Positions 17,511 to 63,151 of a DNA stretch of 64,000 nucleotides are shown one piece after another. This DNA is from Bacillota bacterium. GTDB lineage: Bacteria; Bacillota; Clostridia; Christensenellales; UBA1242. Each line of letters begins with the position of its first letter. Position 1 is the stretch's first letter. The notes under the pieces are model-generated. The model worked only from the letters and a program-made list of their open reading frames with translations, ran no database searches and was not told where the DNA came from. The stretch is from contig WRCD01000001.1 of the NCBI GenBank assembly GCA_009784185.1, positions 129,698 to 193,697 on the forward strand. The letters are read 5' to 3'. The position numbers were made by a program, and so were the translations under genes.

Positions 17511-17554
17511 CCACCCCGCCACTATGTGGCACCCCTCCAGGGAGGGGAATTTTT
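17511..17554. repeat. GGGGAATT-family nested-hairpin repeat, single unit
   Basis: CCACCCCGCC-[GCCAC-tat-GTGGC]-A-[CCCCTCC-ag-GGAGGGG]-AATTTTT. Confidence 0.85.
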
Positions 17555-17604
17555 ACCTTATTATTCTATTGTTATTTACTCTGCAAATATGCTATACTTA
17601 ACAT

Positions 17605-17994
17605 ATGATATCGGAATCCGAACTAAAGAAGTATTCATCAACCGCACTTGCTTTTGTAGGCGATGCTGTTTTTACATTGGCCGTAAGGGCGCGTCTTACA
17701 AGCTGCAGTTTGGCCAAAAGCGGAAAGCTGCACGAGGAAAGCAATAAGTATATTAATGCTGTAAACCAAAGCCGGCTGCTGACGGAGCTTGAAGAAATGC
17801 TTACAACGGCGGAGCAGGAGGTAGTAAGAAGGGGCAGAAATGCTTATACAAACAACAAAGCAAAGGCGGCCGGTCTTGGTGAGTATGCGGATTCAACCGC
17901 ATATGAGGCATTGCTTGGATATTTGTATTTATCGGGAAACGAAAACAGGCTGAACGAGCTTCTTGGGCTTGCCTTAAAGGGGGCAAGAGTATGA
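17605..17994 (+). CDS. mrnC: Mini-ribonuclease III
   Basis: ALAFVGDAVFTLAVR motif, 129 aa. It lies immediately upstream of rlmB-sigH, as in Bacillus (yazC-yacO-sigH synteny). Confidence 0.85.
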   Translation: MISESELKKYSSTALAFVGDAVFTLAVRARLTSCSLAKSGKLHEESNKYINAVNQSRLLTELEEMLTTAEQEVVRRGRNAYTNNKAKAAGLGEYADSTAYEALLGYLYLSGNENRLNELLGLALKGARV

Positions 17995-18719
17995 AAATAG
18001 AAGGCAAAAACGCTGTGTACGAAAATCTGGCTGCCGGCAAGGCCGTTTATAAGATTTATTTAAGCAAAGCCGCCAACCAGGCGCAGTACAAAGACATTTT
18101 AGACCTGGCCAGAAAGGCAAACGTAAAGGTAGAACTGCTGGAGCGGCAGGAATTGGATAAAATAAGCCTGACCAAAAACAACCAGGGCGTGCTAGCCGAA
18201 ATGCAGGATTTTGTTTATAGCAGTGTAGAAGATATTTTGGCGGTTGCAGGTGTAAGGAACGAACCGGCGTTTGTTGTTGCGCTTGACGGCGTTGAGGACC
18301 CGCATAATTTAGGAAGCATAATAAGGGTTTGCGATTGCTCGGGTGTGCACGGCATAATTATTCCTAAGCACAATGCCTGCCCGGTAAACGAGACTGTGGC
18401 AAAAGTAAGCGCGGGGGCAATTTCTCATGTAAAAATTGCAAAAGTAACTAATTTAAACCAGGCTTTAGAAGAGCTGAAACAAAAAGGTGTTTGGGTTTAT
18501 GCGGCAGAACTTGGCGGTGCCAGTATTTATGAGCAGAACCTGACCGGCGCAATATGCCTGGTTGTTGGCGGAGAAGGCAAGGGTGTAAGTCAGCTTACTA
18601 AAAAGGTTTGTGACGGGGTTGTAACTTTGCCGATGCGCGGAGGTGTAAATTCGTTAAACGCCAGTGTTGCGTGCGGAATTACGGTATATGAGGCTTTAAG
18701 GCAGCGAGGTGCAAAATGA
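17991..18719 (+). CDS. rlmB: 23S rRNA (guanosine-2'-O)-methyltransferase, SpoU/TrmH family (RlmB/YacO-like)
   Basis: SpoU-type motifs (LDGVEDPHNLGSIIR, LVVGGEGKGV, LNASVA). Its start overlaps the mrnC stop by 4 nt. Confidence 0.85.
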   Translation: MKIEGKNAVYENLAAGKAVYKIYLSKAANQAQYKDILDLARKANVKVELLERQELDKISLTKNNQGVLAEMQDFVYSSVEDILAVAGVRNEPAFVVALDGVEDPHNLGSIIRVCDCSGVHGIIIPKHNACPVNETVAKVSAGAISHVKIAKVTNLNQALEELKQKGVWVYAAELGGASIYEQNLTGAICLVVGGEGKGVSQLTKKVCDGVVTLPMRGGVNSLNASVACGITVYEALRQRGAK

Positions 18720-19327
18720 TTTTGGACAGCGAGCTTTTAAAGCGGGCCGCAAGCGGTGAAACCGATTGTTTGGAGCAGCTTTTGGAGCGCTACAAAGCGC
18801 TTACGTCTGGAATAGCGCGAGGGTACTTCTTAATAGGCGGAGACACAGACGACCTGATTCAGGAAGGCATGATTGGGCTGTACAAGGCTATACTTGGTTA
18901 CAAAGAAGGAAACGACACAACCTTTAAAACGTTTGCAGCGCTTTGTGTGCGCAGGCAGATACAAACTGCTATTAAGCAGGATGGGCGGCTTAAAAACCGG
19001 CCGCTTAACAACAGTGTTGGGCTTAACGGTCAGGGCATGCTTATTGTTCCTAACCCGGAGTCTGAATCGGATGAAGACGAAGATGTTGGTGTATATGTTG
19101 TAAGCAGTGAGCTTACGCCTGAGCAGCTGCTGCTTAACAGGGAACAGTTAAAAGATGTTACGTGCCAGATACATAAATCTTTAAGCGATTATGAATACAG
19201 GGTGCTGGCATTATATGTAAAGGGATTAAACTACACCCAGATTGCGGAAAAAACCAACAGCAATATTAAAGCTATAGATAACGCACTAAGCAGGATAAAA
19301 ACCAAACTCAGCTATTTAGCGGTTTAG
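18716..19327 (+). CDS. sigH: RNA polymerase sigma factor, SigH-like
   Basis: Region 2 DLIQEGMIGLYKAILGY...FKTFAALCVRRQIQTAIK closely matches the SigH pattern. There is a C-terminal HTH (YTQIAEKTNSNIKAIDNALSRIK). Synteny with mrnC-rlmB supports the call. Confidence 0.8.
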   Translation: MILDSELLKRAASGETDCLEQLLERYKALTSGIARGYFLIGGDTDDLIQEGMIGLYKAILGYKEGNDTTFKTFAALCVRRQIQTAIKQDGRLKNRPLNNSVGLNGQGMLIVPNPESESDEDEDVGVYVVSSELTPEQLLLNREQLKDVTCQIHKSLSDYEYRVLALYVKGLNYTQIAEKTNSNIKAIDNALSRIKTKLSYLAV

Positions 19328-19481
19328 TAATTTGTGATGCTACGGCGCTGGCTTCGCTGCTCTGCAGCTGCAGAGGCGCTCTCCGCAATCACAAATTACT
19401 AAACTTGGCGGATTGTAAAGCTACGGCGCTGGCTTCGCCACTAAAGTGGCTGCAGAGGCGCTCTTAGCACTTACAATCCGC
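19326..19481. repeat. Two tandem ~75-nt long hairpins with conserved cores and covarying outer stems
   Basis: Unit 1 (19326-19400) has the stem AGTAATTTGTGAT/ATCACAAATTACT. Unit 2 (19408-19481) has the stem GGCGGATTGTAAA/CTTACAATCCGCC. Both enclose the identical core flanks GCTACGGCGCTGGCTTCGC and CTGCAGAGGCGCTCT. Confidence 0.8.
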
Positions 19482-19508
19482 CATAAATCAATCGTTAAGG
19501 AGGATGCA

Positions 19509-21083
19509 ATGTATTTAGCATTATACCGTAAATACCGGCCGGAGGTCTTTGAGGATTTAATCGGGCAGGAGCATATTACAAAAACGCTGGTTAATCAAAT
19601 AGCCATGGGTCAGGTCGGGCACGCCTATTTGTTTTGCGGAAGCCGCGGTACCGGCAAAACTACGGCAGCAAAGGTGTTTAGCAGGGCAATTAACTGCCAG
19701 AGCCCAAAATCGGGCAGCCCTTGCGGCAAATGTGCGGCGTGCAAAGCTTTAAGTGACCCGAGCAACATGGACATTATTGAGATTGACGCTGCCAGCAACA
19801 ACAGGGTAGACGAGGTGCGGGATATCCGCGAAAAGGCTAAATATCCTCCGGTGTCCGGAAAGTACAAGGTGTATATTATAGACGAAGTGCATATGCTTAC
19901 CGAAAGCGCTTTTAATGCTTTGCTTAAAACGCTGGAAGAGCCTCCAAAGCATGCTGTGTTTATTTTGGCAACAACCGAAGCACATAAGCTGCCGTCCACA
20001 ATTTTAAGCAGAGTGCTCAGGTTTGATTTTAAGCTGCTGGCGCGCACAGATATTGAAAAGCTGCTTAAAAAAGTGTTTAAGTCTGCGGGCATAACCTGTG
20101 ACGAGGCGGCGCTTAGTGCAATAGCTGTTGCTGGCGAAGGCTCGGTACGGGATGCGCTGTCTGTAGCCGATATGGTGGCCGCCTATAGCAACAACAACAT
20201 TACTTACAATGCCGTGCTGGAGGTGCTTGGCTCAGGCGACAAAAACACGATAATTGATATCAGCCGTGCAATTTTAGGCGGGAATGTAGCCGGCTTTGTA
20301 GACTTAGTTAATGTTTATAATTCCGCAGGCAGAAATCTGCAGGCACTGGTTAAGGACCTGACGGCACATTTTTATCAGCTGATTATGATAAAAACCTTGC
20401 CGGAAGCTAACAAAACATTGCTGCTGCCTAAAGAGGTTTTTGTGGAAATGCAGAAAGATTGTGCAGCGGATGCGGCATTGCTTAATGAGTGTATGCAGAC
20501 ATTTAATAAAGCCGGGCTGGAACTGAAGTTTGCGCCGGACCCGCTGCTTTGTTTAACTGCCGCAGGGCTGGGAATTATGCTTGGCGGCGATAAAAAAAAA
20601 CGGGTGATTGATAATTCCCCTCTTGAGAGGGGTGTCGGCAAAGCCGACGGGGTGTGTTTAAACAAAGTTTCTGCGCCGCCTTTGGCGGCGACTACCCCGT
20701 CTGCTTCGCTTTGCTCGCATCCACCCCTTCGCGAGCAAAGGGGAATTGGTTTGGCGGAGGCCAATGGTGACGCTCGCAAGATTTGGGGGCAGGTGTTGCA
20801 GGAGCTGGACAAAAAGCAATGTATGCTGCTTTACCCCATTTGCGGAAAGATTAGTAACGTGTATATAAACGGCAATAATTTTGTTGTTGCAGCAGGAAGC
20901 GCTGCCGAGCAGAAACTGCTAAAAAAAGAGCAAAACTACAACGATTTGGTAGCAGCTTTTGCCGGAATCGGATATAATTACAATATCGTGATTGAAGTTG
21001 GGCTAAATATAAAGACTCAAACCAAAAACACCGAAGACATATTAAAAGAAAAGTTAGGCGATATATTAAAAATAAAGGAGTAA
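19509..21083 (+). CDS. dnaX: DNA polymerase III subunit gamma/tau
   Basis: Start is MYLALYRKYRPEVFEDLIGQEH, with an AAGGAGGA SD. Walker A GSRGTGKTT, zinc module CGKCAAC, DEVHML and SRV motifs are present. The ORF-track start at 19446 is an unsupported extension. Confidence 0.92.
   Translation: MYLALYRKYRPEVFEDLIGQEHITKTLVNQIAMGQVGHAYLFCGSRGTGKTTAAKVFSRAINCQSPKSGSPCGKCAACKALSDPSNMDIIEIDAASNNRVDEVRDIREKAKYPPVSGKYKVYIIDEVHMLTESAFNALLKTLEEPPKHAVFILATTEAHKLPSTILSRVLRFDFKLLARTDIEKLLKKVFKSAGITCDEAALSAIAVAGEGSVRDALSVADMVAAYSNNNITYNAVLEVLGSGDKNTIIDISRAILGGNVAGFVDLVNVYNSAGRNLQALVKDLTAHFYQLIMIKTLPEANKTLLLPKEVFVEMQKDCAADAALLNECMQTFNKAGLELKFAPDPLLCLTAAGLGIMLGGDKKKRVIDNSPLERGVGKADGVCLNKVSAPPLAATTPSASLCSHPPLREQRGIGLAEANGDARKIWGQVLQELDKKQCMLLYPICGKISNVYINGNNFVVAAGSAAEQKLLKKEQNYNDLVAAFAGIGYNYNIVIEVGLNIKTQTKNTEDILKEKLGDILKIKE
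20613..20747. repeat. GGGGAATT-family repeat, inverted pair, embedded in-frame in dnaX
   Basis: AATTCCCCTCttgaGAGGGGT-GTCGGCaaaGCCGAC-GGGGTGTG ... CCCCGTC...CCACCCCTTcgcgagcaAAGGGGAATT. The architecture matches the intergenic copies. Confidence 0.8.
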
Positions 21084-21087
21084 ACTT

Positions 21088-22060: not shown

Positions 22061-22091
22061 TTGACAAATGCGTAGGGGGGGGGGCTATAAT
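22061..22091 (+). promoter_or_regulatory. Sigma-70-type promoter with a G10 tract in a 19-bp spacer
   Basis: TTGACA (22061-22066), 19 bp containing G10 (22075-22084), then TATAAT (22086-22091). An AAAGGAGA SD and the ATG at 22122 follow. Confidence 0.7.
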
Positions 22092-22121
22092 AGACACATA
22101 GACCAAAAGGAGAAACAAAAT

Positions 22122-22745
22122 ATGATTAAAGAATTGATTTTTATAATTGACACTTCTAGTGATTCGGGGAGCAGGGCTAGAGAAGTAATGACGGCGGAAA
22201 CGGTTAATGTGGCTATGAGCATGGTCTGTAAAGACTTAGCTGATTTTTCAGGCTCAGTTCATCCGGAGGTGGAGCCGCGGCTTTCTATTTACCACAGTGT
22301 GTGGGATATGGAGCCACTGAGAAGCAAGGTCAACAATTGTCCATGGGCGGCGGCACCTGAGGCTGCCGAGAGAAATAAGTTTAACAAAGCGAAAATTAAT
22401 TTTGTAGGAAATCCAATGCTTGACGGTGCAATATTGGCGCTTGCAGAAAAACTTGAGGAAAAAGCAAACGCAGGCGGTTACGATTCAGGCATATGCGCGC
22501 CCGAAATTTTTGTGCTTGCCGGTGAGGCAGTAAACATGGATATGTTTTTTAGAACTGTTGAAAAGGCTGCGGAAAGAAGCCGCTTGATTAAACACTCAAG
22601 GGTTAGCGCAGTTTATATAGGCAACGATGCAGGTGCTCTGTATAAACAGATAGGCACAGGCACTAAGAAATGGAAAGACAAGTGGGCAGGAAAGGCAACA
22701 GCAATTGAGCCGCAAGGCGGCGCCGGAACCATGGACAAGAAATAA
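22122..22745 (+). CDS. Hypothetical protein, vWA/TerY-like fold with a degenerate MIDAS (tentative)
   Basis: The SD sits 8 nt upstream. LIFIIDTSSDSGS ... PRLSIYHSVWD ... GNPMLDGAILALAEKL ... PEIFVLAGEAVNMD ... VSAVYIGNDAG follows the vWA beta-alpha-beta order, but the metal-binding residues are replaced. Confidence 0.45.
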   Translation: MIKELIFIIDTSSDSGSRAREVMTAETVNVAMSMVCKDLADFSGSVHPEVEPRLSIYHSVWDMEPLRSKVNNCPWAAAPEAAERNKFNKAKINFVGNPMLDGAILALAEKLEEKANAGGYDSGICAPEIFVLAGEAVNMDMFFRTVEKAAERSRLIKHSRVSAVYIGNDAGALYKQIGTGTKKWKDKWAGKATAIEPQGGAGTMDKK

Positions 22746-22753
22746 TTTTTAAA

Positions 22754-22797
22754 CCGCCCCGGCGCTATGCGCCACCCCTCCAAGGAGGGGAATTTTT
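22754..22797. repeat. GGGGAATT-family repeat, single unit (terminator-like)
   Basis: CCGCCCC-[GGCGC-tat-GCGCC]-A-[CCCCTCC-aa-GGAGGGG]-AATTTTT, directly after the stop at 22745. Confidence 0.85.
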
Positions 22798-23402: not shown

Positions 23403-23528
23403 AAAATTCCCCTCTATAAGAGGGGTGGCAATCACGAAGTGATTGACGGGGTGTGGATAACGAAAAGTCTGTATGACAACCACACCCCGCCTCGCAGGCT
23501 CGGCACCCCTCTTATAGAGGGGAATTTT
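23403..23528. repeat. GGGGAATT-family repeat, complete inverted pair
   Basis: AAAATTCCCCTCTataAGAGGGGT-GCAATCACgaaGTGATTGAC-GGGGTGTGG ... CCACACCCC-GCCTCGcagGCTCGGC-ACCCCTCTtatAGAGGGGAATTTT. Confidence 0.9.
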
Positions 23529-23641: not shown

Positions 23642-24214
23642 ATGAATATAGAACAAAGAGCGGACAGAATTATTGAAACCAGCAATAAGTATGTTGTAAG
23701 GCCTTCTGACCCGGATAGTTTTGGCAAGTTTAGTATCACAGATAAAAAAACCGGAGTTGATATGTCTGCAAAACTGGACAAGGACAGCAAGCGAGAGATA
23801 GTTTATAATGATATGATTAGAAACTTGTGCAGCGTAAAGAAATATTCTACAGATGGAACTCAAGATAGTTATGACAAAATTATGCTAGAAAATATGTTGC
23901 CTAATTTTGACGTATTGGCTGCAATGATTAACAAAGATTTAGGCAATGGCTCAATAGACACACAACCCATATTTAAGTATTTTGACGAGTGTAAATTTAA
24001 ATACACAGATGAATTAATACGAGGAATGTTCACTTCATCAATCTCGTATGGGCCGGAAAGGTTTTTGATTTTTGCAAATTACCATAACAATAATCCGGAC
24101 ATAAAACGAGTTTCAGATGCAAGTTGTAAAGGTCCGTCCGGCATTATACCCAACCCAACCAGAGTGAATTTTAAGGTGGAGAGAGCGCCTGCGGCCAAAG
24201 TTAAACTTCCTTAA
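23642..24214 (+). CDS. Hypothetical protein
   Basis: An AAAGGAGA SD precedes the ATG. 190 aa, no recognised motif. Confidence 0.55.
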   Translation: MNIEQRADRIIETSNKYVVRPSDPDSFGKFSITDKKTGVDMSAKLDKDSKREIVYNDMIRNLCSVKKYSTDGTQDSYDKIMLENMLPNFDVLAAMINKDLGNGSIDTQPIFKYFDECKFKYTDELIRGMFTSSISYGPERFLIFANYHNNNPDIKRVSDASCKGPSGIIPNPTRVNFKVERAPAAKVKLP

Positions 24215-24216
24215 AC

Positions 24217-24259
24217 CACCCCGCCCTTCGGGCACCCCTCCAAGGAGGGGAATTTTTTT
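24217..24259. repeat. GGGGAATT-family repeat, single unit (terminator-like)
   Basis: CCACCCC-[GCCC-ttc-GGGC]-A-[CCCCTCC-aa-GGAGGGG]-AATTTTTTT, immediately after the stop at 24214. Confidence 0.85.
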
Positions 24260-25195: not shown

Positions 25196-25242
25196 AATTC
25201 CCCTCTATAAGAGGGGTGCCGAGTTTACGAGGCGGGGTGTGG
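25196..25242. repeat. GGGGAATT-family repeat, single unit (opposite orientation)
   Basis: AATTCCCCTCTataAGAGGGGT-GCCGAGtttaCGAGGC-GGGGTGTGG, between divergent genes. Confidence 0.85.
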
Positions 25243-27978: not shown

Positions 27979-28028
27979 CACATACCCCGTCGGCTTCGCC
28001 GCCACCCCTTTATCTTAAAGGGGAATTT
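27979..28028. repeat. GGGGAATT-family repeat, single unit
   Basis: CACATACCCC-[GTCGGC-ttc-GCCGCC]-A-[CCCCTTT-atctt-AAAGGGG]-AATTT. The hairpin B stem carries compensatory changes. Confidence 0.8.
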
Positions 28029-28058: not shown

Positions 28059-29405
28059 TTGTACTTTAAAGGTTACGCTTTTTTGTTTAGTTTAGTTGTG
28101 CTCGTATTGTTTACGGGTTTTTCAGGCTTTAGTTCGGTTGGGGCAAGCAACGAGCCGCATGAGGATTTTGTTTTAAGATACGACGGCAAAAAGCATATAT
28201 ACGATGTAGCTAAAAACGAGCCCAAGAGCAGCATCCATACCATTGAGCACCGGTATCAGAGGTTTGGCAAAAAAGGAACTCCTGCCGAGCGTGCGGAACT
28301 GCTGGGGAGGGTAATGGAACTGGGATTCGGCTATGAAGAGGCATTTAAATATGTATTTAAAAACTTTGATGTATTTGTTGCGGGGGTAATTAAAGGCGTT
28401 AGCCGCCCAAGCAAGGACTCTAAGATTTCTTTCTATCCCAACAGGAGCGATATGTTTGATATATCCCGGGAGCAGGTTGGTTTTGTGGTAAACAAGGAGC
28501 AGCTTTACAAAAAAATGTACATAGAATACTGTAAGACCGGCAAAATTGATATAGAAATTATTCCGCAAGTATTGGAGCCGCGGTACACATATGACGAGCT
28601 GAGTGCGGTAGACAACCTAAAGGCAAAGTTTGGCACATATTACGGAAGCAGCGGAGCGGACAGGCGGCACAACATTAACCTGGCTCTCAGGCAGCTTAAC
28701 GGTATGCGGATAGAGCCGAATGAAGAATACTCATTTAACAAAATCACCGGCAGACGGACAGAAGCCAACGGATACAGAAAAGCAAATATAATTATCAACG
28801 ACGAATATGTAGAAGGGTACGGCGGCGGGGTTTGCCAGGTGAGCACTACCCTATATAACGCATTGCTTCTTTCAGGCGCAGATATAACCGAGGTAAGGCG
28901 GCATTCGTTGCCCAGCAGTTATGTAGCGCTTGGGTTTGATGCAATGGTATCTCACGGCACAAGTGACCTTAAGTTTATAAACCGCAGCAGCCTGCCTATG
29001 TTTATAAAAGCATACAGCACTCAAAACAATATCTACATTGAAGTATACGGCGCTTCAAGCGAACCTGATTTTAAAATTAAACGCATTACCGAGATAATAA
29101 GAAAAATATCTCCTGCGCCGAGTAAAACCATTATTGATACAGCCGGAGAACATTCTGGCCTTGTAAACTATACAGACGAAACAGCAGTGCTGCATTACGC
29201 AAAGGACGGATATGAGGTAAACGCGTATCTGGAGTATTACATTGGCAGTACAATGGTAGGCAGAAAATTAATCCGGCATGAAACATACAAGCCGCAGCAA
29301 GGAGTGTACGTGCGCGGGGCTAAGAAGCGTCCTTTGCCACCACTGGAATCGGAGCCGCTAACTCAAATAATTCCCCTCTTAGAAAGAGGGGTGGCAGGCG
29401 TTTAG
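28059..29405 (+). CDS. VanW family protein
   Basis: N-terminal signal/TM and the VanW core (EPNEEYSFNKITGRRT...GYGGGVCQVSTTLYNA). The last ~12 codons (IIPLLERGVAGV) are encoded by a repeat element. Confidence 0.85.
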   Translation: MYFKGYAFLFSLVVLVLFTGFSGFSSVGASNEPHEDFVLRYDGKKHIYDVAKNEPKSSIHTIEHRYQRFGKKGTPAERAELLGRVMELGFGYEEAFKYVFKNFDVFVAGVIKGVSRPSKDSKISFYPNRSDMFDISREQVGFVVNKEQLYKKMYIEYCKTGKIDIEIIPQVLEPRYTYDELSAVDNLKAKFGTYYGSSGADRRHNINLALRQLNGMRIEPNEEYSFNKITGRRTEANGYRKANIIINDEYVEGYGGGVCQVSTTLYNALLLSGADITEVRRHSLPSSYVALGFDAMVSHGTSDLKFINRSSLPMFIKAYSTQNNIYIEVYGASSEPDFKIKRITEIIRKISPAPSKTIIDTAGEHSGLVNYTDETAVLHYAKDGYEVNAYLEYYIGSTMVGRKLIRHETYKPQQGVYVRGAKKRPLPPLESEPLTQIIPLLERGVAGV

Positions 29406-29512
29406 CCTCGCCGGGGTGTATGATTAATAACTATATACGCCTTCGGCGGCTACCCTGTCTGACTTCGCCACGAATGGCTCGTCATCCACCCCTTCGGAGA
29501 AGGGGAATTTTT
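29369..29512. repeat. GGGGAATT-family repeat, inverted pair overlapping the vanW 3' end
   Basis: AATTCCCCTCTtagaaAGAGGGGT-GGCAGGCgtttaGCCTCGCC-GGGGTGTA ... ACCCTGTC...CCACCCCTTCggaGAAGGGGAATTTTT. Confidence 0.8.
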
Positions 29513-29617
29513 ACTAAGGCGGTCTCTAAAGTTATTCACACGCGCTGCAAATACGACACACACTCTCCCAAAACCGGAATATTTACTCATGTAATTTGTG
29601 AATAAGTCTAACACGGT

Positions 29618-29746: not shown

Positions 29747-29839
29747 CCGCATTGCATTATACGAAATCCGGCATGAATAATATGCATGCATAAAATTACA
29801 TAGCGTGTATAATAAGTACGGAAAATGTTGTATATACGA

Positions 29840-29968
29840 AATTCCCCTCTATAAGAGGGGTGCCGAGCTTGCGAGGCGGGGTGTGGAAAACACTATAGCT
29901 AGTTTTATCTCCACACCCCGTCTGTCTGCGTTATCGCTTGACATCCACCCCTCTTGTAGAGGGGAATC
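29840..29968. repeat. GGGGAATT-family repeat, inverted pair
   Basis: AATTCCCCTCTataAGAGGGGT-GCCGAGcttgCGAGGC-GGGGTGTGG ... CCACACCCCGTC...CCACCCCTCTtgtAGAGGGGAATC. Confidence 0.85.
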
Positions 29969-32654: not shown

Positions 32655-32761
32655 AATTCCCCTCTAGAGAGGGGTGGCACGGAGTGCCTGGGTGTGTTAT
32701 GTGTGCTTTTCACATACCCCGCCTCGCAAGCTCGGCACCCACAATATCCTAAAGGGGAATA
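32655..32761. repeat. GGGGAATT-family repeat, inverted pair (right half degenerate)
   Basis: AATTCCCCTCTagAGAGGGGT-GGCACGGagTGCCTGG-GTGTGTT ... CACATACCCC-GCCTCGcaaGCTCGGC-ACCC...AAAGGGGAAT. Confidence 0.8.
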
Positions 32762-47705: not shown

Positions 47706-48791
47706 ATGATGGCGAATGAGAAAATAGAACACACCCCGCCTTCGGCACCCCTCTCAAGAGGGGAATTATTGGCAGGAACGGGTAATGACAGGGTGGGAAT
47801 AAAGCAAAGGATTGTTACGTGCGTGCTGGTGCCGGTTATGGTGCTTGCGCTTGTGCTTGCAGTTTTTGGTGCGTATCTGCTTGCTCCGCTAAAGGGCGAG
47901 GTGCGTGGGTATTACTGGAATGAATTCACGCCGTTTAGTTTAGCACACGGGCAGAGCATAGATGTTGGCGGCGAGGACTACAACATATTGCTGCTTACCG
48001 ATTTTCATTATCCGCTGTCGGGTGCTAAAACAGATGCGCTTATAAAAACAATGGTGGAAGAGAATAATCCGGACCTGATTGTGCTGGTGGGGGACCAGGT
48101 TTTTAGTCCGTTTAACCATTTCAGTTACCGGCATTTAATCAACCTTTTTGATTCGTTTAAAGTGCCTTGGGCACCGGTGTTTGGCAACCATGACGAAGAA
48201 GGCAAGGCAGATAAGCAATACTTAGCCAATATGCTTGAAGAAAGCGAGTACTGTATGTTTCAGTACGGCCCCAGAATTACAGGTGCCGGCAATTATTTTA
48301 TAAACCTGACTAACGGAGCAGATATTATTTACACCTTGTTCTTTTTAGATTCGTTCAGTTCGTTTTGGGAAAGCGGATACAGGCCATATACTGCCGACCA
48401 GGTAAGCTGGCTGAAATGGGCTGCTAGCGGGATAGCAGCGGAAGCAGGCAAAAAGGTGCCGTCGGTTGTGTATGGGCATATACCTGTGCCGGAGTTTACT
48501 CCTGCTTTTAATGAAGCGTTTGCCTCGGGCACAGTTATTCACGGGCAGCAGCTTGAGCCAAACGGACACAGCAATATTAACAACGGCTTGTTTGCCGCCA
48601 TAAAAGATATAGGTGCCGAGTATATGTTTTGCGGGCATGAGCACGTAAACGATTTTATGGTAGAGTATCAGGGCGTTAAGCTGGCTTATGTATTATCCGG
48701 CGGGGTGGGCGGCTACGGCAACATCTTGGGCGGAACGATGTTTACCGTAAAGCCGGATGCAAGCACAACAGTGGTTAACAAACCGTATTAA
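47706..48791 (+). CDS. Calcineurin-like metallophosphoesterase with an N-terminal TM anchor
   Basis: Motifs DFHY, GDQV, GNHDEEG, GHIP and GHEH. A GGGGA SD lies 9 nt before the ATG. Codons ~9-22 derive from a repeat unit. Confidence 0.8.
   Translation: MMANEKIEHTPPSAPLSRGELLAGTGNDRVGIKQRIVTCVLVPVMVLALVLAVFGAYLLAPLKGEVRGYYWNEFTPFSLAHGQSIDVGGEDYNILLLTDFHYPLSGAKTDALIKTMVEENNPDLIVLVGDQVFSPFNHFSYRHLINLFDSFKVPWAPVFGNHDEEGKADKQYLANMLEESEYCMFQYGPRITGAGNYFINLTNGADIIYTLFFLDSFSSFWESGYRPYTADQVSWLKWAASGIAAEAGKKVPSVVYGHIPVPEFTPAFNEAFASGTVIHGQQLEPNGHSNINNGLFAAIKDIGAEYMFCGHEHVNDFMVEYQGVKLAYVLSGGVGGYGNILGGTMFTVKPDASTTVVNKPY
47729..47768. repeat. GGGGAATT-family repeat, single unit inside the 5' end of a CDS
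   Basis: ACACACCCC-[GCC-ttc-GGC]-A-[CCCCTCT-ca-AGAGGGG]-AATTATT. Confidence 0.8.
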
Positions 48792-48887
48792 TTCCCCCTT
48801 TAGCAAAGGGGTGCCGGCTGAGCGAACGGGGTTCCACCATAATTCCCCTCTAGAGAGGGGTGTCGGGCGAAGCCTGACGGGGTGTGT
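48790..48887. repeat. GGGGAATT-family repeat, two tandem same-orientation units
   Basis: AATTCCCCCTTTagcAAAGGGGT-GCCGGCtgagcgaAC-GGGGTTCC, then AATTCCCCTCTagAGAGGGGT-GTCGGGCgaaGCCTGAC-GGGGTGTG. The first unit starts in the stop codon at 48789-48791. Confidence 0.85.
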
Positions 48888-48899
48888 TTGCGTTAAAGT

Positions 48900-49049
48900 T
48901 TGTTTAAATACAAAAACGATGATTTGCCCTATAACCCAAAACTAAAACAGTATGCGTCAAAGCTGCGTAAGGCGGGTAATCTGTCTGAGGTTTTGCTGTG
49001 GCAACAGTTAAAGAGAAAGCAATTGAATGGCTTTTTCTTTAGTAGATAA
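48900..49049 (+). pseudogene. Truncated DUF559 (Vsr-like endonuclease domain) gene remnant
   Basis: The frame encodes ...DDLPYNPKLKQYASKLRKAGNLSEVLLWQQLKRKQLNGFFFSR*. This matches the conserved N-terminal leader of DUF559 proteins but stops before the nuclease core. A repeat unit abuts the break. Confidence 0.55.
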
Positions 49050-49054
49050 AAGGT

Positions 49055-49106
49055 CACAACCCCCGTCGGCTCCGCCGACACCCCCTTGGCTCAAGGGGGA
49101 ATTTTA
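49055..49106. repeat. GGGGAATT-family repeat, single unit
   Basis: CACAACCCCC-[GTCGGC-tcc-GCCGAC]-A-[CCCCCTTG-gct-CAAGGGGG]-AATTTTATTT. Confidence 0.85.
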
Positions 49107-49804: not shown

Positions 49805-49821
49805 GAGTCTCCTTTGGAGAC

Positions 49822-53404: not shown

Positions 53405-53416
53405 GGTACTCCTTAT

Positions 53417-53443
53417 AATTCCCCTCTATAAGAGGGGATTTTT
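53417..53443. repeat. GGGGAATT-family hairpin B only, intra-operonic
   Basis: AATTCCCCTCTataAGAGGGGATTTTT, between the subunit C and subunit F genes. Confidence 0.75.
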
Positions 53444-53447
53444 AGTC

Positions 53448-54428: not shown

Positions 54429-54437
54429 GTTTGTCTC

Positions 54438-55025
54438 CTAATTGTTAAACAAAATATCAGCCACCTGCGTTTCAATCTTTTTGCGCAGTTCTGCTAAAAT
54501 ATTGTCAAGCGTAAAATCCCGGTCAAAGGTCTTTCCCATTATTTTTATGCCGCCCTTAAAATCTGACACAACACTGTAGCCAAGTTTAATTTTGCCAGCC
54601 TTTGCTGCTTCGGCCACAAATGTGGATGTAATGCGTTTTTCGTCATGTTTTGATACAATTATTACATCACCGTTGTTTGCGTTCTTTAAAATAATTGCCT
54701 TAATAACCTCCAGATACTTCTTGTCGTTTAGTTTAAGGATGTCTTGTTTGGCCAAATCAAAGGCAAAACCGGTAAGCTCGGACTTAAAATTAAGCTCATT
54801 GCGTTTAACATCTATGTTAGACAGCAGCAGCCGGTGTTTGTTTGCGTCCAGTGCCTTGCCGGTTGCTTTTTTTACGGCTTCGGCACGAACTTCTTTGAGC
54901 TCGGCTTTTACGGCATCAAACTGAGCAGCGCTGGTTTTTGCGGTGTCGGCTAAAAGAGCCTCGGCTTTGGCTTTTGCGTCGGCTATGATTTTTTCAACCA
55001 CTATGTTTTCCTGGACTTCAACCAC
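54438..55025 (-). CDS. ntpE: V-type ATPase subunit E
   Basis: 195 aa with an N-terminal Ala/Lys-rich coiled coil and a C-terminal globular part. Operon position supports the call. Confidence 0.75.
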   Translation of the reverse strand: MVEVQENIVVEKIIADAKAKAEALLADTAKTSAAQFDAVKAELKEVRAEAVKKATGKALDANKHRLLLSNIDVKRNELNFKSELTGFAFDLAKQDILKLNDKKYLEVIKAIILKNANNGDVIIVSKHDEKRITSTFVAEAAKAGKIKLGYSVVSDFKGGIKIMGKTFDRDFTLDNILAELRKKIETQVADILFNN

Positions 55026-55474
55026 TATAATACTCCTAATACCGATACTATTAATGCAATTAACGCAAACAGCTCTGAGAAAATAATCATGGTTGCGGCT
55101 TTGCCGGCCAGTTCAGGCTTTTTACCTACCATATTTATGGTTGCTACTGCCACTTTTCCTTGAAAGATTGAAGTAACCATGCCCACTATTGCAATCGGCA
55201 GGCAATACAGCATAAGCATAAGGCCTTGGTCAAGTGTATATGCAACCCCGTCTGTAATAATTGGCAGAACTACCAAAAACGCAATAACAAACCCGTACAG
55301 GGCCTGAGAAGACGGGAAAAGCTGAAGCAGCATGGTTTTACCAAATTTTTCCGGGTCCTCGCTTATTACTCCCGCTGCCGCCTGACTGGCTGTTGTTACA
55401 CCGATAGTTGAACCAATGCCGGTTAGTCCGGCAGCCAGCACTGCACCAACTATGGCTAAAATTGTACCGTCCAT
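55025..55474 (-). CDS. ntpK: V-type ATPase proteolipid subunit K (4-TM, 16-kDa type)
   Basis: 149 aa with duplicated hairpins and a carboxylate in the last helix (IIFSELFAL). PSSQALYGF and IFQGKV resemble the Na+-site residues of Enterococcus NtpK. Confidence 0.85.
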   Translation of the reverse strand: MDGTILAIVGAVLAAGLTGIGSTIGVTTASQAAAGVISEDPEKFGKTMLLQLFPSSQALYGFVIAFLVVLPIITDGVAYTLDQGLMLMLYCLPIAIVGMVTSIFQGKVAVATINMVGKKPELAGKAATMIIFSELFALIALIVSVLGVL

Positions 55475-57546
55475 TATTTATTCTCCTTTATTATCTTTTT
55501 ATTTTTTAAAATTACATATTTTGTATTGGTGCCCATAGGCGCAAACGGAGTGCCCTCACCGGTGTAGAATTTACCGAAGAATTCCACAAACTGCAAACGC
55601 GCATTGTGTACGTACGCTCCAAGTACGGCAAGCCCAACGTTGAAGCTGTGAAACACAACCGCAACCAATATTCCAAGCGGAATTCCCACGCCGGGAATAT
55701 CAAACACCATAACTCCCATTCTGTTTGCTACAGTTGCTATTACCGCTCCAACCAAGCCGATAGCAAACAGCCTTGCATAACTTAAAATGTCACCCGCGTA
55801 GTTTACCAAGCTGTAAACTCCGGCAATCCCGCCCGTTATTTTACCAAAGAAGCCTTTGTTTTTGCGGCCGTTGGTAAACATAATTAACACAACGGATGCA
55901 ATTGCCATGTACAGGCCGATATCTGCTACAATGCCGGTTGGTGTAATAAGGTTTGATACAAACATAACTATACCCAGCAGCATGGTCAGCCTGATACCGG
56001 CATCAAGTATTGCGTCCAGCCACCGTTTTTGTTTAAGCAGTGCCACCATTTTAAGCGTTATGCCAAACATAATATGAATCATGCCAAGTGCCAGAGACAA
56101 TCCCAGAAACAATATTGCATCATTAACGGGGTCCAACAGTCCGGGTATTATGGATACGGCCTTGCCGCCGGCACCAACAGTCTGCAGCCCCAGCCAGCCC
56201 CCAAACACAAGCCCCCAGATAATTGCGGATACGCCGCCCATACATATAATGGCAATCAAACTTTTGGTGCCGCGCTCCATTTTACAAAACATTAGTACCG
56301 CAAGGGTTGCTATAAACAGAATTATTCCGTAACCCACATCGCCTACCATTATGCCGAAAAACAGAAAGAAGAATATTCCCACAAAAATGTTGGGGTCACG
56401 CTCGCGGCTGCTGGGGTAGCTGTACATATTGGTTATGCTTTCGTACGGCCGTACTATTGCGCTGTTTTTTGTATATGTCGGAACCTTTTCATCCGGAGCC
56501 GGGTCGGTAAACTGTACAAACACGTCGGTACTTACCTGATTAATCAGTGCGGTTACATTCTGCTGCTGATGCTCGGGAACCCAGCCGGTTAATACAAACG
56601 TGCGGTTGGTGGATAATATGCGGTCGCCTATGTTTACGCCTTCCAGTTCAAGATTCAGCCAGTCGTGATAAACTTTCAGCTTTTGTTCCATGTCAGCGTT
56701 GGTGGCGGCATATTTCAGAAGGTCTAAAATTTTGTAGCGTATTCCTACGTTGGTGGCTTCAAGTTCATCTATTTTCTGTTGTGCCGTAACGGGGAAGCTA
56801 TAGCTGCATTTGTTTAGCCCGTATTTGTAAATCTCGTTTAAAAACACCTCGTTGTCTTTGTGGCAGAACAATGCCACACAACACATATTGCCTTTAGTTA
56901 CTTTTTCAATTACAAGATTTGTAGTATCGCATTCTGCCATAAAGGCGTTAAAACTGCGTTCCTGTATTGTACCTACAATCCGCACGGACTTATTGTTGTT
57001 TGTAAACTGGTCCAGCGGTACGGTAAGTTTTGCGTACGGTTTTAGTTCACGGCGTATCAGATTGTTGTTGTTCATCTCGTTTTTCAGTTCCGGTATCAGC
57101 TGGTTGATTTGTTCCAGTTCATGAATATGGCTTAAAATTTTTTCTTCGTACTTTGATATTGACTTAAACTCGGCGTAGTCTATCTCGTTTCTGTAAAAGA
57201 ACATTGGGGATTTTGGTTTTTTATACTTGTGACTATTTGTTTGTTCCAGCGCAAACTTGTATAGCTCCGGTCTGCGTTTAGCTAAGTATTTTAAAAAGCT
57301 TTTGTTATTGATAAGTGTGTTAAGGTAACCGGTATGACTTTTATCGGAAAATTCAATTGCAAACTTGGTGCGGGTAAGACTGGCCTGAATATGGTCGCGG
57401 CGCTGCTGGTCCGTAATAAATTCGCTGCCCGTAAGTTTTTCTAATTTACCCATTTCAAAACTGGAGCTGACGCGCAATGCCTCTAAAATGGCGTTCAGTT
57501 CGCTCTTGAGTCCTATTAAGTTTATTTTTTTCATGCGTTCAATCAT
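55474..57546 (-). CDS. ntpI: V-type ATPase subunit I (a-like stator/channel)
   Basis: 690 aa. Soluble N-terminal half plus a multi-TM C-terminal half with the conserved Arg region (LSYARLFAIGL). Confidence 0.88.
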   Translation of the reverse strand: MIERMKKINLIGLKSELNAILEALRVSSSFEMGKLEKLTGSEFITDQQRRDHIQASLTRTKFAIEFSDKSHTGYLNTLINNKSFLKYLAKRRPELYKFALEQTNSHKYKKPKSPMFFYRNEIDYAEFKSISKYEEKILSHIHELEQINQLIPELKNEMNNNNLIRRELKPYAKLTVPLDQFTNNNKSVRIVGTIQERSFNAFMAECDTTNLVIEKVTKGNMCCVALFCHKDNEVFLNEIYKYGLNKCSYSFPVTAQQKIDELEATNVGIRYKILDLLKYAATNADMEQKLKVYHDWLNLELEGVNIGDRILSTNRTFVLTGWVPEHQQQNVTALINQVSTDVFVQFTDPAPDEKVPTYTKNSAIVRPYESITNMYSYPSSRERDPNIFVGIFFFLFFGIMVGDVGYGIILFIATLAVLMFCKMERGTKSLIAIICMGGVSAIIWGLVFGGWLGLQTVGAGGKAVSIIPGLLDPVNDAILFLGLSLALGMIHIMFGITLKMVALLKQKRWLDAILDAGIRLTMLLGIVMFVSNLITPTGIVADIGLYMAIASVVLIMFTNGRKNKGFFGKITGGIAGVYSLVNYAGDILSYARLFAIGLVGAVIATVANRMGVMVFDIPGVGIPLGILVAVVFHSFNVGLAVLGAYVHNARLQFVEFFGKFYTGEGTPFAPMGTNTKYVILKNKKIIKENK

Positions 57547-57863
57547 AAAAACTCTTTATTAAACTCATCCAATATTAGTTTTTTGACCCGGTCTGCATTT
57601 TTTTCGTAAGCTATTTTCAGTTTTTCATGATGCCGGTTGTGGTCGTCAAAAAAAGCAGCGAGTTCGGCGTCGCTGATAGTTTTATATTTTTCCTCAAGCT
57701 CTGATATTTCGGCACGCAGCTTGCCTAAAAACTCATCGCGGTACTCGTCGGTTTCAAGCTGGATTTTTAACGCCAGCTGTTTTGCCTTTTCCGCAGCATC
57801 CGCCTCAATAAGCGCGGCGGTATTTTCGGCTTCCACAATATCAGAAACAACCTGGTCTAACAT
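57543..57863 (-). CDS. V-type ATPase peripheral-stalk subunit (G/H-like, NtpF-like)
   Basis: Coiled-coil ~106 aa and the first gene of the operon, with an ATGA overlap with subunit I. The ATG at 57863 is preferred because GGGGA lies 5 nt upstream; the ORF track gives 57893. Confidence 0.55.
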   Translation of the reverse strand: MLDQVVSDIVEAENTAALIEADAAEKAKQLALKIQLETDEYRDEFLGKLRAEISELEEKYKTISDAELAAFFDDHNRHHEKLKIAYEKNADRVKKLILDEFNKEFL

Positions 57864-57978
57864 AATTTCCCCTTTCAAACCATAATACAACATTATTATA
57901 CGCCTTTTTTGTATATATACAAAATGATTTATGCAACTTACTATGTAATTTACGGTATGGTTTTATGTTGTAAATGCT

Positions 57979-60775: not shown

Positions 60776-60780
60776 AAGGC

Positions 60781-60891
60781 AGGGAACAAGGAACAGGGAA
60801 CAACGAACAACGACGGGTCGCGTTGCTCCAAATAACTATCTCGGAGCGCAGCGACCAATAGTTGTTACCTGTTACCTGTTCACTGTTACTT
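60781..60891. repeat. Heptamer-arm repeat family, complete palindromic element (rpsG-fusA spacer)
   Basis: (AGGGAAC)(AAGGAAC)(AGGGAAC)(AACGAAC) - GGGTCGCGTTGCTCC - 13 nt - GGAGCGCAGCGACC - AATAGTT - (GTTACCT)(GTTACCT)(GTTCACT)(GTTACTT). The arms and the cores are mutually reverse-complementary. Confidence 0.88.
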
Positions 60892-60915
60892 GAAAAAGAA
60901 GAGAGGATAATTAAA

Positions 60916-62985
60916 ATGGCGAGAGCAGTTCCGCTGGAAAAAATAAGAAACATTGGTATCATGGCACACATTGATGCCGGAAAAACAACCACAACCGAGC
61001 GTATATTATATTACACCGGTTTGGTTCATAAAATTGGCGAAGTGCACGAAGGCGGCGCTACAATGGACTGGATGGTTCAGGAGCAGGAGCGTGGCATTAC
61101 AATTACAAGTGCGGCAACAACCACAACCTGGAAGGGCCACACTATAAACGTAATTGATACTCCCGGTCACGTGGACTTTACAATTGAAGTAGAACGCAGC
61201 TTAAAGGTGCTTGACGGGGCCGTAGCGGTGTTTTGCGCGCGCGGCGGAGTTCAGCCGCAATCCGAAACCGTTTGGCGTCAGGCCAACAAATACGGCGTAC
61301 CGAGAATGGCGTATATCAACAAAATGGATATAAACGGAGCAGACTTTTACCGTGATATCCAGATGATGAAAGACCGCCTGAGAGCAAACGCTGTGCCGAT
61401 TCAGCTTCCGATTGGGGCAAGCGAAACATTTTGCGGTATTGTTGACCTTGTTGAGATGAATGCCACATATTATAAGGATGACATGGGCAAGGAAATGGAA
61501 GTTAAAGAAATTCCTGCCGACATGATGGACAAGGCTAAAGAGTATAGGGCGAAACTGATTGAAGCGGTTGCCGAAACAGACGACGTACTGCTTGAAAAGT
61601 TTATTATGGGAGAGGAATTTACCAAAGACGAACTTAAAAAGGGTATCCGAAACGCAACCATAGCCCTGAAAATGAATCCGGTTACTTGCGGCACAAGCTA
61701 CAAAAACAAGGGCGTTCAGTTAATGCTTGATGCGGTTGTGGACTATATGCCAAGCCCGCTGGACATTCCCGCAATTAAAGGCGTGCTTCCAAACGGAGAG
61801 GATTCCGAGCGTCACACAAGCGATGAAGAACCGTTTAGTGCATTAGCGTTTAAGGTAGCAACCGACCCGTACGGAAGGCTGACATATTTCAGAGTTTATA
61901 GTGGTGTATTAACCACAGGAAGCTATGTGTATAACAGCACCAAGGACAAAAAAGAACGCGTTGCAAGGCTTATAAGAATGCACAGTAATGAGCGCAAAGA
62001 AATTGAAGAAGTACGTGCAGGAGATATTGCGGCAATAGTAGGCTTAAAAGACACCACAACCGGGGACACATTATGCGACGAAAAGAAACCGATTATCCTT
62101 GAGAGCATAAATTTCCCGGACCCGGTTATTAAAATTGCAATAGAACCAAAGACCAAGCAAGGGCAAGACAAGATGATGCAGGCTTTACTCAAGTTTGTAG
62201 AAGAAGACCCAAGCTTTAAAACTTACACCGACCAGGAAACAGGCCAGACAATTATAGCCGGCATGGGCGAGCTTCATCTGGATATATATGTAGACAGGCT
62301 GAGACGCGAGTTTAATGTAGAAGCCAATATAGGCAAACCGCAGGTTGCATATAAAGAAACAATCCGCGGAAGCGCACGTATGGAAGGCAAGTACATCAGG
62401 CAGTCCGGCGGAAAGGGTCAATACGGACACTGTGTTATTGAAATGGAACCATTAGAACCGGGCAAGGGCTATGAGTTTGTAGACAAGATTGTTGGAGGCG
62501 CAATACCCAAAGAGTTTATTCAGCCTATCAACAACGGTATTACGGAAGCTAAACAAAACGGTGTGCTGGCGGGCTACGAGATGGTAGACTTTAAGGTAAC
62601 ACTTGTTGACGGAACGTTCCATGATGTTGACTCAAGCGAAATGGCGTTTAAAATTGCGGGAAGTATGGCTTACAAAGATGCTGCAAAGGCCTGTCGTCCG
62701 GTGCTGCTGGAGCCTATCATGAAAGTTTCGGTAGAAATGCCCGACCAATACCTGGGTGACGTTATGGGCGACCTTAACAGACGAAGAGGACAAATCAGGG
62801 AATCCGAAATTAAAGACGGTCAGCAAACGATTAACGCAAATGTTCCGCTATCCGAAATGTTTGGTTATGCAACTGACCTCAGAAGTTTGACACAAGGGCG
62901 CGGATCGTTTATAATGGAGTTGAGTCACTTTGACGAGGTTCCGAAATATGTGGCTGATAAAATTATCGGGGATAGAAGTAAGTAA
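60916..62985 (+). CDS. fusA: Elongation factor G
   Basis: [40 protein letters not shown]. The GAGAGG SD supports the ATG at 60916; the ORF-track start at 60862 lies in the repeat. Confidence 0.97.
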
Positions 62986-63003
62986 TATTGAACACCCGAA
63001 CAA

Positions 63004-63151
63004 AATTCTCCTTTAAGATAAAGGAGTACCCCGCTTGCGGGGGGAGGTATGTGAAACAGTTGGATAAGCAATAAGACTGGATTTATCACATACCCCGTCA
63101 AGCCTGACGGCTTGCCACCCCAATACCCTTAAAGGGGAATTAAAACGCTAA
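63004..63151. repeat. GGGGAATT-family repeat, divergent inverted pair (fusA-tuf spacer)
   Basis: AATTCTCCTTTaagaTAAAGGAGTA-CCCCGCttgcGGGGGG ... CACATACCCC-GTCAAGCctgacGGCTTGC-CACCCCaatacccttaaAGGGGAATT. In the left half, hairpin B has the compensatory stem CTCCTTT/AAAGGAG. Confidence 0.75.

Follow-up and report, generated by a model that had tools for sequence, protein, structure and literature searches.

What are the short, structured repeats that are scattered over one stretch of bacterial DNA, and what has spread them? The stretch in question, hereafter the window, comprises 64,000 nucleotides from Bacillota bacterium (GenBank assembly GCA_009784185.1, contig WRCD01000001.1, positions 129,698 to 193,697 of the forward strand), and approximately 20 repeat units of about 45 bases lie between 17.5 and 63.2 kb of it, far above chance. 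Pattern scans of public collections and custom statistics were used to analyse these units. They indicated a family with covariation among three short boxes, which recurs beside the gene for a small nuclease of the DUF559 family, and we consider it very probable that the repeat family, the covariation and the gene association are real. On balance we favour the view that a widespread selfish cassette encodes this DUF559 nuclease, and that the repeats are either its terminal units or derivatives of it without the gene.

The repeat family in the window

Each unit follows the plan (A)NNA-CCCC (box1), G(T)C-stem-loop-stem-GC (hairpin A), CA-CCCC-YYY-loop-RRR-GGGG (hairpin B), and AATT. Conservation begins 5 nt upstream of the first C-run and ends just past AATT(t), and the conserved tail is AATT only. 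An earlier note made from this sequence had described an abundant family, present as single units, inverted pairs and tandem units, with a distribution like that of repetitive extragenic palindromic (REP) elements or miniature inverted-repeat transposable elements (MITEs), and this description was borne out. Automatic parsing gave 16 complete units, to which four degenerate ones were added (32655-32703, 48790-48840, a lone hairpin B at 53417-53440, and 63088-63141). The pattern GGGGAATT was observed 20 times in the window, while dinucleotide-preserving shuffles gave an expectation of 2.3 +/- 1.5; CCCCTCT-N3-12-AGAGGGG was observed 7 times with 0 expected, and a scan of the whole window showed that all but one of its CCCC...GGGG hairpins are members of the family. 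The only contigs sharing proteins with the window (loci L001 and L123) are 100% or 99.99% identical to it, and are thus the same genome. An occurrence of GGGGAATT at 63374 was rejected as a chance match, inside the gene after fusA (the tuf position in L001).

Four inverted pairs were found (20613-20747, 23405-23526, 29369-29509 and 29840-29968), all with their AATT ends facing outward, as well as one tandem (48790-48887); the remaining units are single. The gene-less inverted pairs span 105-141 bp and, like MITEs, have inverted ends of about 45 bp that enclose a short non-coding segment. Units occur in both orientations relative to the flanking genes, and are located in intergenic spacers, between divergent genes, upstream of ribosome-binding sites (RBSs), inside operons and even in frame within dnaX, with several situated 3' of stop codons.

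Folding of the units as DNA, with Watson-Crick pairs only, gave two adjacent hairpins in nearly all cases, with z-scores of -2 to -5.7, and box1 was unpaired in all folds. Hairpins A and B are therefore placed side by side, and the nesting described in the earlier note occurs in inverted pairs only. Hairpin A is hypervariable yet structured, as that note had it: among 133 units fetched without any condition on hairpin A there were 85 distinct sequences, with a median folding z-score of -2.3. Its stems are 3-12 bp in length, G/C-rich and mostly closed by triloops, and in 123 of 251 units it begins with GTC after the CCCC of box1, and is then followed by CA-CCCC. The statement that its arms are always self-complementary was too strong, since those of the variant GCCGAG/CGAGGC (23480, 25196, 29840) are not complementary and fold via GCCT/AGGC only. 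The paired substitutions reported for hairpin B were confirmed as true paired changes between its arms.

Three-box covariation

The earlier note had read the covariation within the two hairpins as evidence of selection on structure. Selection on structure is supported, but the decisive covariation involves three boxes with mirror symmetry rather than two arms. In counts made on 251 distinct units, box1 (the 3-5 bases located 5' of the first CCCC) tracks hairpin B in mirror register, with 489 of 503 positions fitting, whereas a shift of box1 by one base reduced the fit to 238/528 and 124/252 (approximately 45-50%). At position -2, T stands opposite an A-T pair in 102 of 106 cases and C opposite a G-C pair in 142 of 145; at position -3, A is found opposite A-T (37/40) and C opposite G-C (153/156), and at position -4 the corresponding counts are 38/39 for A and 8/8 for C. 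At least 10 haplotypes of box1 and hairpin B follow this code, and all four combinations of two binary positions are present. Box1 CCA occurs with hairpin B arms TCC/GGA, ACA with TCT/AGA, CTA with TTC/GAA, and ATA with TTT/AAA; longer examples are CCTA with TTCC/GGAA, CCCTA with TTCCC/GGGAA, ACTA with TTCT/AGAA, CCATA with TTTCC/GGAAA, and CAA+CCCCC with CCCCCTTG/CAAGGGGG.

Box1 and the purine arm are in parallel register and thus form a mirror repeat. Watson-Crick pairing was rejected as the source of the box1 covariation because antiparallel pairing cannot give a mirror register, and both alternatives of this type, in which box1 pairs with the purine arm plus tail or its complement pairs with the pyrimidine arm, were excluded by register. 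The complementary, G-rich strand reads 5'-AATT-CCCCTCC-loop-GGAGGGG-TG-[hairpin]-GGGGTGG, in which the last box and the purine arm are antiparallel, G facing the G-C pairs and either T or A the A-T pairs. Read on this strand, the covariation code is that of the purine-motif (reverse-Hoogsteen) triplex, i.e. G*G-C, T*A-T and A*A-T. The units also show the layout of an intrastrand triplex, in which pyrimidine, purine and reverse-Hoogsteen blocks follow in that order, the third block is antiparallel and the code is obeyed, and a strict triplex-motif finder run on the 64-kb window returned 8 units of the family and nothing else. Two points count against a pyrimidine-motif (C+*G-C) triplex, whether in RNA or on the C-rich strand: most A-T pairs face A and not T, and at neutral pH consecutive C+ are unfavourable. 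Since A and T are both used opposite A-T, and only the purine motif allows both, the purine motif is preferred. Readings as i-motif or G-quadruplex were discarded, as there are too few tracts per unit. The mirror covariation of three boxes speaks for a triplex of DNA and against a fold of RNA, and it is likely that such a triplex is its cause; for the triplex code itself the comparative evidence is strong.

A DUF559 nuclease cassette

When open reading frames (ORFs) were clustered from approximately 240 repeat-bearing loci, one small protein of about 130 amino acids was found to recur. It belongs to DUF559 (PF04480, E 1e-25 to 1e-29) and matches PDB entry 3HRL (E 1e-17), and residues D62, E73, D75, H79 and D86 are invariant in 16 DUF559 sequences, including E. 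coli YcjD. The protein is thus predicted to be a Vsr-like, EDxHD-type PD-(D/E)XK nuclease. Its gene is present in 21 of 246 sequences that had been fetched by the repeat only. In most of these 21 loci the units lie within about 130 bp of the gene, G-rich in orientation on its upstream side and C-rich on its downstream side, with AATT facing outward, and both flanks carry units in roughly two-thirds of them. Only 4 of the 1534 ORFs of 90-200 amino acids in these loci are so placed, 3 of which are DUF559. Several of the DUF559 copies are pseudogenes, and the window itself contains a decayed cassette (48841-49103) in which a remnant of the gene (48924-49055) lies between two units. The gene-less inverted pairs of the window share the exact end geometry of the DUF559 cassette, and they therefore look like MITE-type derivatives of it. 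The two ends of one cassette have different hairpins A and identical hairpins B. A co-variation of nuclease clade with unit type was considered and found to be only partial, as mixed-type cassettes exist.

A published survey places DUF559 genes in the group of families with the strongest enrichment (odds ratio 14) of 'programmed-inversion' repeats in their flanks, and in the literature searched there was no paper linking DUF559 to repeats of the present kind.

Several whole cassettes, consisting of units, nuclease gene and units, are read through in frame by a host ORF (L078, L042, L202, L016 and L262). The hosts are hsdR, Eco57I-like type IIG genes and a 1621-residue ORF, four of the loci being in hsdR or type IIG genes, and in two others (L087 and L093) the cassette directly follows an hsdS-like 3' end, so that cassette sites are biased to restriction-modification genes. 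One clade of DUF559 cassettes (L165, L218, L221, L234 and L237) carries an additional conserved palindrome, e.g. CTTCGGCACTACAGTGCCGAAG, outside the AATT ends on both sides, suggesting a larger composite element.

Distribution and signs of mobility

The earlier note had held that confinement to the window would count against its reading. The units are not so confined, and are not lineage-specific: more than 15 phyla have near-identical copies, and phage contigs carry them too. A scan of GTDB, with one genome per species and the pattern CACCCCTC-N4-7-GAGGGGAATT, gave at least 120 stretches, and in almost all of these the upstream CCACCCC-G(T)C-hairpin was also present even though it was not part of the query. 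Among the matches listed are Bacteroidota, as isolates (many of them Chryseobacterium, Pedobacter and Flavobacterium), Proteobacteria (including Serratia), Cyanobacteria, Planctomycetota, Verrucomicrobiota, several Bacillota, Actinomycetota, Chlorobiota, Ignavibacteriota, Nitrospirota, Acidobacteriota, Patescibacteria, Fibrobacterota and others, and many are metagenome-assembled genomes (MAGs) from termite gut. Scans for other stem variants added 114 loci from metagenomes and 7 from viral contigs, and some phage-like contigs contain several copies.

Within dnaX of the window (19509-21083), the inverted pair at 20613-20747 is read in frame as approximately 45 residues (..VIDNSPLERGVGKADGVC..SHPPLREQRGIG..) in the hypervariable linker between domain III and the C-terminal domain. 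DnaX orthologues with 62-66% identity are without the unit-encoded segment. The absence of this insert from orthologues, the copies in phage contigs, the DUF559 pseudogenes and the near-identity of units across so many phyla would all be signs of mobility. Flank profiles of single units showed no target-site duplication; the AATT at both ends of the pairs could be a duplication, or belong to the element itself.

DUF559 genes fetched by protein alone

The association was also examined in reverse, using 17 DUF559 loci that were fetched by protein alone (8 viral loci, 8 inspected loci from PLSDB, and E. coli ycjD). Strict triplex motifs were present in 9 of the 17, with 24 motifs in 11 kb of DUF559 flanks as compared to 0 in shuffles, and by eye approximately 13-14 of the 17 show triplex motifs belonging to unrelated sequence families. 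One of the viral contigs has a close DUF559 relative with canonical units. The flanks of more distant viral DUF559 genes (36-41% identity) hold repeats of this architecture from other sequence families, such as CCCCCCTTT-AGA-AAAGGGGGG-TT-GGGGGGATTT, or, in locus L252, CCCCTCTCCCCGC-GTG-GCGGGGAGAGG-[long hairpin]-GGTGAGGGG, in which 9 of 9 positions match the code. All 8 inspected PLSDB loci have motifs (N. gonorrhoeae, A. lipoferum, Sinorhizobium, Sphingobium, Synechocystis, PCC 7002, Deinococcus and Pseudanabaena), with 10/10 code matches in A. lipoferum and a hairpin in loop 2 in Sinorhizobium and Sphingobium. A number of PLSDB 'plasmid' records of 2-5 Mb (from N. gonorrhoeae, Sinorhizobium and E. 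coli; H10, H11, H21-H23, H31 and H32) are evidently mislabelled chromosomes.

In E. coli the relevant repeat is BoxC, which has been re-described as PIT elements and as TM_ECO (Hoyne & Maher 2000; Holder et al. 2015, PMC4666352). In K-12 the stop codon of ycjD (DUF559; L246, NC_000913.3 1351100-1351800) is covered by a decayed BoxC. A canonical BoxC/TM_ECO follows approximately 180 bp downstream, and the interval between the two holds a fragment duplicated from the 3' end of ycjD. In a spread sample of complete E. coli genomes, the median number of other BoxC-matching places was 13 with ycjD and 3 without it (p = 7e-8, not phylogeny-corrected).

Proposed mechanism and alternatives

In the mechanism that we propose, each unit would fold once its DNA is single-stranded or extruded. 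Of the boxes on the G-rich strand, 5'-AATT-[CCCCYYY]-loop-[RRRGGGG]-TG-[hairpin A']-[GGGGWKK], the first two would pair by Watson-Crick bonds to give hairpin B, and the last would fold back antiparallel on the purine arm through the triads named above, producing a class II purine-motif intrastrand triplex. Hairpin A would serve as a mere connector that returns the third strand, a role that would explain why its stem is kept while its sequence is free. The folded end would be recognised and nicked by the DUF559 nuclease; from the nick the cassette would be copied, as would, by action in trans, single units and inverted pairs that lack the gene. We infer the triplex folding in vivo, the recognition and cleavage by DUF559 proteins and the mode of mobility from the patterns described above. 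Whereas the terminal-unit reading of the repeats is on balance probable, mobility driven by DUF559 has in our estimation slightly less than an even chance. A broader proposal, which we put forward tentatively, is that bacterial intrastrand-triplex repeats have DUF559/EDxHD nucleases as their missing partner enzymes, which would recognise the triple helix at the ends and drive the spread of the element; its scope, just as tentative, would take in the pan-bacterial family described here, E. coli BoxC/PIT, and families in rhizobia, sphingomonads, Neisseria, cyanobacteria and Deinococcus.

Several observations weigh against this mechanism. With regard to the triplex, about 3% of positions violate the code, 19 units have an unpaired seventh position, and the putative triplex of this family would contain 6-10 triads only. 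Binning is uncertain for the MAGs that supply many of the matches; the unit is, however, also carried by isolates of Bacteroidota and Proteobacteria. In the reverse test 3-4 of the 17 loci are without a motif, the intact BoxC downstream of ycjD lies in the other orientation, and the E. coli correlation may owe something to phylogeny. The ends of a cassette can differ in unit type (L063, L202 and the window), and the nuclease therefore does not simply co-vary with the variable triads. An intact DUF559 gene was not found within the 64-kb window, and no pair of empty and filled sites was found, the relatives retrieved being of the same genome only. Finally, we know of no DUF559 enzyme that transposes anything, and the known relatives of the family are a mismatch nickase (Vsr) and a homing endonuclease.

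The main rival explanation is that DUF559 acts as a guardian and not as a mobiliser, processing or repairing the lesions or stalled forks caused by triplex-forming selfish or structural repeats. PIT/TM_ECO sequences are reported to block DNA polymerase in vitro, TM_ECO loci have been linked to genome rearrangement, and a Caulobacter DUF559 protein has been proposed as a repair nuclease; moreover, association alone is silent on which partner serves which. However, a gene strictly bracketed by inverted units, with pseudogenes, in-frame cassettes in restriction-modification genes and copies in phage contigs, is typical of a mobile unit and not of a housekeeping gene, and we regard a guardian role as unlikely.

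It is improbable that the three-box correlation arose without a triplex, either through sequence recognition by a protein or through descent from a few subfamilies. Since the units are related, the counts are not independent, and a handful of major haplotypes dominate. Against this, all four combinations of the two binary positions exist, more co-changes are seen at positions -4 to -6, and the unrelated families beside distant DUF559 genes obey the same code, as noted above for A. lipoferum and L252. As for recognition by a protein, dimeric proteins do not read mirror symmetry, and cassettes that encode one nuclease mix unit types at their ends.

It is quite improbable that the repeats are elements working at the level of RNA, for instance intrinsic terminators or 3' hairpins that stabilise mRNA, under selection for RNA structure. 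The earlier note had remarked on the terminator-like look of many copies, and hairpin B followed by AATT(T)n does fit a loose terminator consensus, accounting for 14 of the 39 terminator-like sites in 17-33.5 kb, where 19.4 were expected in total; together with the position of several units after stop codons, this indicates that some copies probably double as terminators or mRNA-end hairpins. But AATT is conserved and the T-run is not, orientation is mixed, and placement between divergent genes, upstream of RBSs and in frame in dnaX does not suit such a role. A search of Rfam, at gathering and permissive thresholds, with the window and 18 loci gave no match on the units, the only matches being tRNA-Ser in the window and Flavo-1 and a tRNA elsewhere in the loci. 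Mirror-register covariation is left unexplained by Watson-Crick folding of RNA, and purine-motif triplexes are stated not to form in RNA (PMC4666352), which argues for a structure at the DNA level.

Mobilisation of the units as REP/REPIN elements by a REP-associated tyrosine transposase (RAYT; an IS200-like Y1 HUH transposase), the partner envisaged in the earlier note, is very improbable: like REPs (PMC3733652, PMC6006769) the units are small, palindromic, abundant in intergenic regions, found as inverted dimers and sometimes located in genes, but they have no GT[AG]G head, their hairpin sequence is not conserved within a genome, and E. coli RayT, used as a tblastn query on 1.76 Mb of repeat-bearing loci, had one weak match (E 0.006) as against more than 20 for DUF559, the recurrent neighbour in the ORF clusters, among which there was no recurrent transposase.

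Should the DUF559 mechanism be correct, it would represent a new class of structure-guided mobile element, distinct from the HUH, DDE, serine and tyrosine systems. Three-way covariation in mirror register, in hundreds of natural copies, would be comparative evidence for the selection of DNA triplexes in bacteria, for which the prior basis is mainly in-vitro work on one E. coli motif. The bracketing of DUF559 by the units offers a candidate function for the large family PF04480, whose function is unassigned, and a candidate enzyme for BoxC/PIT-type repeats, and the origin and spread of those repeats are now directly testable. For annotation, the units create spurious ORFs and peptide segments (NSPPLEGW...DGVV), sit in frame in essential and restriction-modification genes, and are likely mis-scored as programmed-inversion repeats or as terminators.

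Individual units and other features of the window

The first unit of the window is single and lies between divergent genes (17509..17551, + strand; box1 CCA, arms CCCCTC/GAGGGG). In the dnaX pair, the left unit, in frame inside the gene, is of the ACA / TCT-AGA type (20613..20657, -), and the right unit is of the CTA / TT-AA type with a long, imperfect hairpin A (20690..20747, +). A single unit after the ORF at 22068-22745 is followed by a T-run and is terminator-like (22752..22794, +), and another between convergent genes is also followed by a T-run (24214..24254, +). The gene-less, MITE-like pair between them, with AATT outward, is made up of 23405..23456 (-) and 23480..23526 (+). Two single units come next, one immediately upstream of the RBS of a yegS-like gene (25196..25242, -) and one of the ATA / TTTA-TAAA type (27980..28027, +). 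The left unit of the next inverted pair overlaps the stop codon of a VanW-domain gene (29369..29421, -) and its partner is of the CTA / TTC-GAA type (29448..29509, +), while the last pair consists of 29840..29886 (-) and 29911..29968 (+), the latter having the tail AATC. Between these two pairs is a 310-bp A/T-rich spacer (29520-29830) with 4-5 copies of (T)AATTATGCA and a DnaA-box-like TGTGGATAA, which may be a regulatory region or an array of binding sites.

Further along, a single unit has a degenerate box1, CACCCA (32655..32703, -), and another, with a short hairpin A, lies at the 5' end of a metallophosphoesterase ORF (47729..47767, +). A degenerate unit (48790..48840, -) is in tandem with the upstream terminal unit of the decayed DUF559 cassette (48841..48887, -; G-rich strand on +). 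The remnant of the nuclease gene (48924..49055, +) encodes residues ~12-55 and then a stop codon (tblastn E 8.5e-12, 59% identity), and the downstream terminal unit (49056..49103, +) has box1 CAA+CCCCC and arms CCCCCTTG/CAAGGGGG. A lone hairpin B with its AATT tail lies inside the V-ATPase operon (53417..53440, -). The last unit is degenerate, with box1 ATA and a disrupted hairpin B, and is located downstream of fusA, before the next gene (63088..63141, +; tuf position in L001). Two adjacent hairpins just after fusA (63005-63050; CTCCTTTAAGATAAAGGAG and CCCCGCTTGCGGGG) are not members of the family and may be a terminator or attenuator of fusA.

A single ORF of 4202 amino acids (1878-14486) occupies the repeat-free first quarter of the window. 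The source, a MAG that carries the label Firmicutes, is of uncertain taxonomic placement: it has a complete V-type ATPase operon (49172-57893), and the labels Spirochaetales or Clostridia are found on some of its nearest DnaX relatives. The part of the window with the lowest GC content (0.41) holds a gene for an EcoRI-type adenine methyltransferase (PF13651) and, after it, one for an HNH endonuclease (40715-42963). This pair probably represents a restriction-modification island that was acquired; no repeat units lie in it. The target of EcoRI-type enzymes is GAATTC, and the units end in GAATT.

Comparison with known systems

Like REP/RAYT 'REPtrons' and REPINs, the present system has a single-copy gene bracketed by inverted short structured repeats, which otherwise occur as gene-less singlets and inverted doublets, and in both the repeat number is lower without the gene (in E. 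coli). The enzyme, however, is a PD-(D/E)XK Vsr-like nuclease and not a HUH Y1 transposase, the covariation is of triplex type, and the foot of the hairpin has no GT[AG]G, the head being CCCC-G(T)C. With MITEs (Correia/NEMIS) and Rickettsia palindromic elements (RPE) the family shares gene-less elements with terminal inverted repeats of ~45 bp and a tolerance of in-frame insertion in coding genes (dnaX here; hsdR and type IIG genes elsewhere), but it differs in having no known transposase family (its putative autonomous form carries DUF559), no demonstrated target-site duplication, and ends that are internally structured.

The CGTC-tagged REPs (Di Nocera et al. 2013, PMC3733652), which include Neisseria dRS3 and Rickettsia RPE-4/6, have a CGTC-like head (CGTC, TGTC or CCTC in those REPs, CCCC-GTC... 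here) and a CCA tail, both of which are found in hairpin A, and they likewise form head-to-head dimers, occupy sites in replication and repair genes, and have no dedicated transposase known. Their stems, in contrast, are conserved, with 8-9 bp starting with AT and a loop of 4-5 nt, while the stem of hairpin A is hypervariable and the conserved part of the present units is the flanking C-boxes and the second hairpin. The taxa of these REPs overlap with those of the DUF559 matches, but the Neisseria DUF559 gene is flanked by BoxC-like repeats and not by dRS3.

The Vsr-like PD-(D/E)XK clade also holds the EDxHD homing endonuclease I-Bth0305I. The cassette protein is of the same Pfam and structural clade as I-Bth0305I and Vsr (PF04480; PDB 3HRL) and keeps their acidic and His residues, but unlike I-Bth0305I it is not found in an intron or intein, being free-standing or fused in frame and flanked by structured repeats, and its activity is predicted only.

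The closest known system is BoxC/PIT/TM_ECO. The earlier note had not recognised the family, which has no match in Rfam and for which literature searched by motif strings gave nothing relevant, but a related kind of repeat had already been described. Both are interspersed, G/C-rich, intergenic, present in many copies and strain-variable, with a class II layout of pyrimidine arm, loop, purine arm, loop and G-rich third box, and in E. coli a DUF559 gene, ycjD, adjoins BoxC. For TM_ECO, with its pyrimidine, purine, reverse-Hoogsteen (Y-R-RH) layout, a triplex has been reported in vitro by circular dichroism and nuclear magnetic resonance, whereas here it is deduced from covariation, and no mobility function was ever found near TM_ECO sites in the published survey (PMC4666352). 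The TM_ECO consensus is CCCTCNCCC-N3-6-GGGNGAGGG-N3-GGGNGAGGG (PMC4666352), as opposed to AATT-CCCCTCY... here, where the boxes are CCCCTCY/RGAGGGG/GGGGTGK. The second loop, of 3 nt in TM_ECO, is replaced here by TG and a variable hairpin of 9-40 nt, and the conserved AATT tail is new, as is the occurrence in many phyla rather than in Proteobacteria only. Since the ITxF search of the TM_ECO survey allowed loops of 1-6 nt only (PMC4666352), and the second loop here is a hairpin, that survey would miss the present units. As neither the short loops nor the TM_ECO consensus are found here, the present repeats are, as judged by their layout, a different family from BoxC/TM_ECO with the same architecture. 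They are a pan-bacterial variant of the intrastrand-triplex kind of repeat, with an association with DUF559 that is not described in the literature searched and that extends to BoxC and other families.

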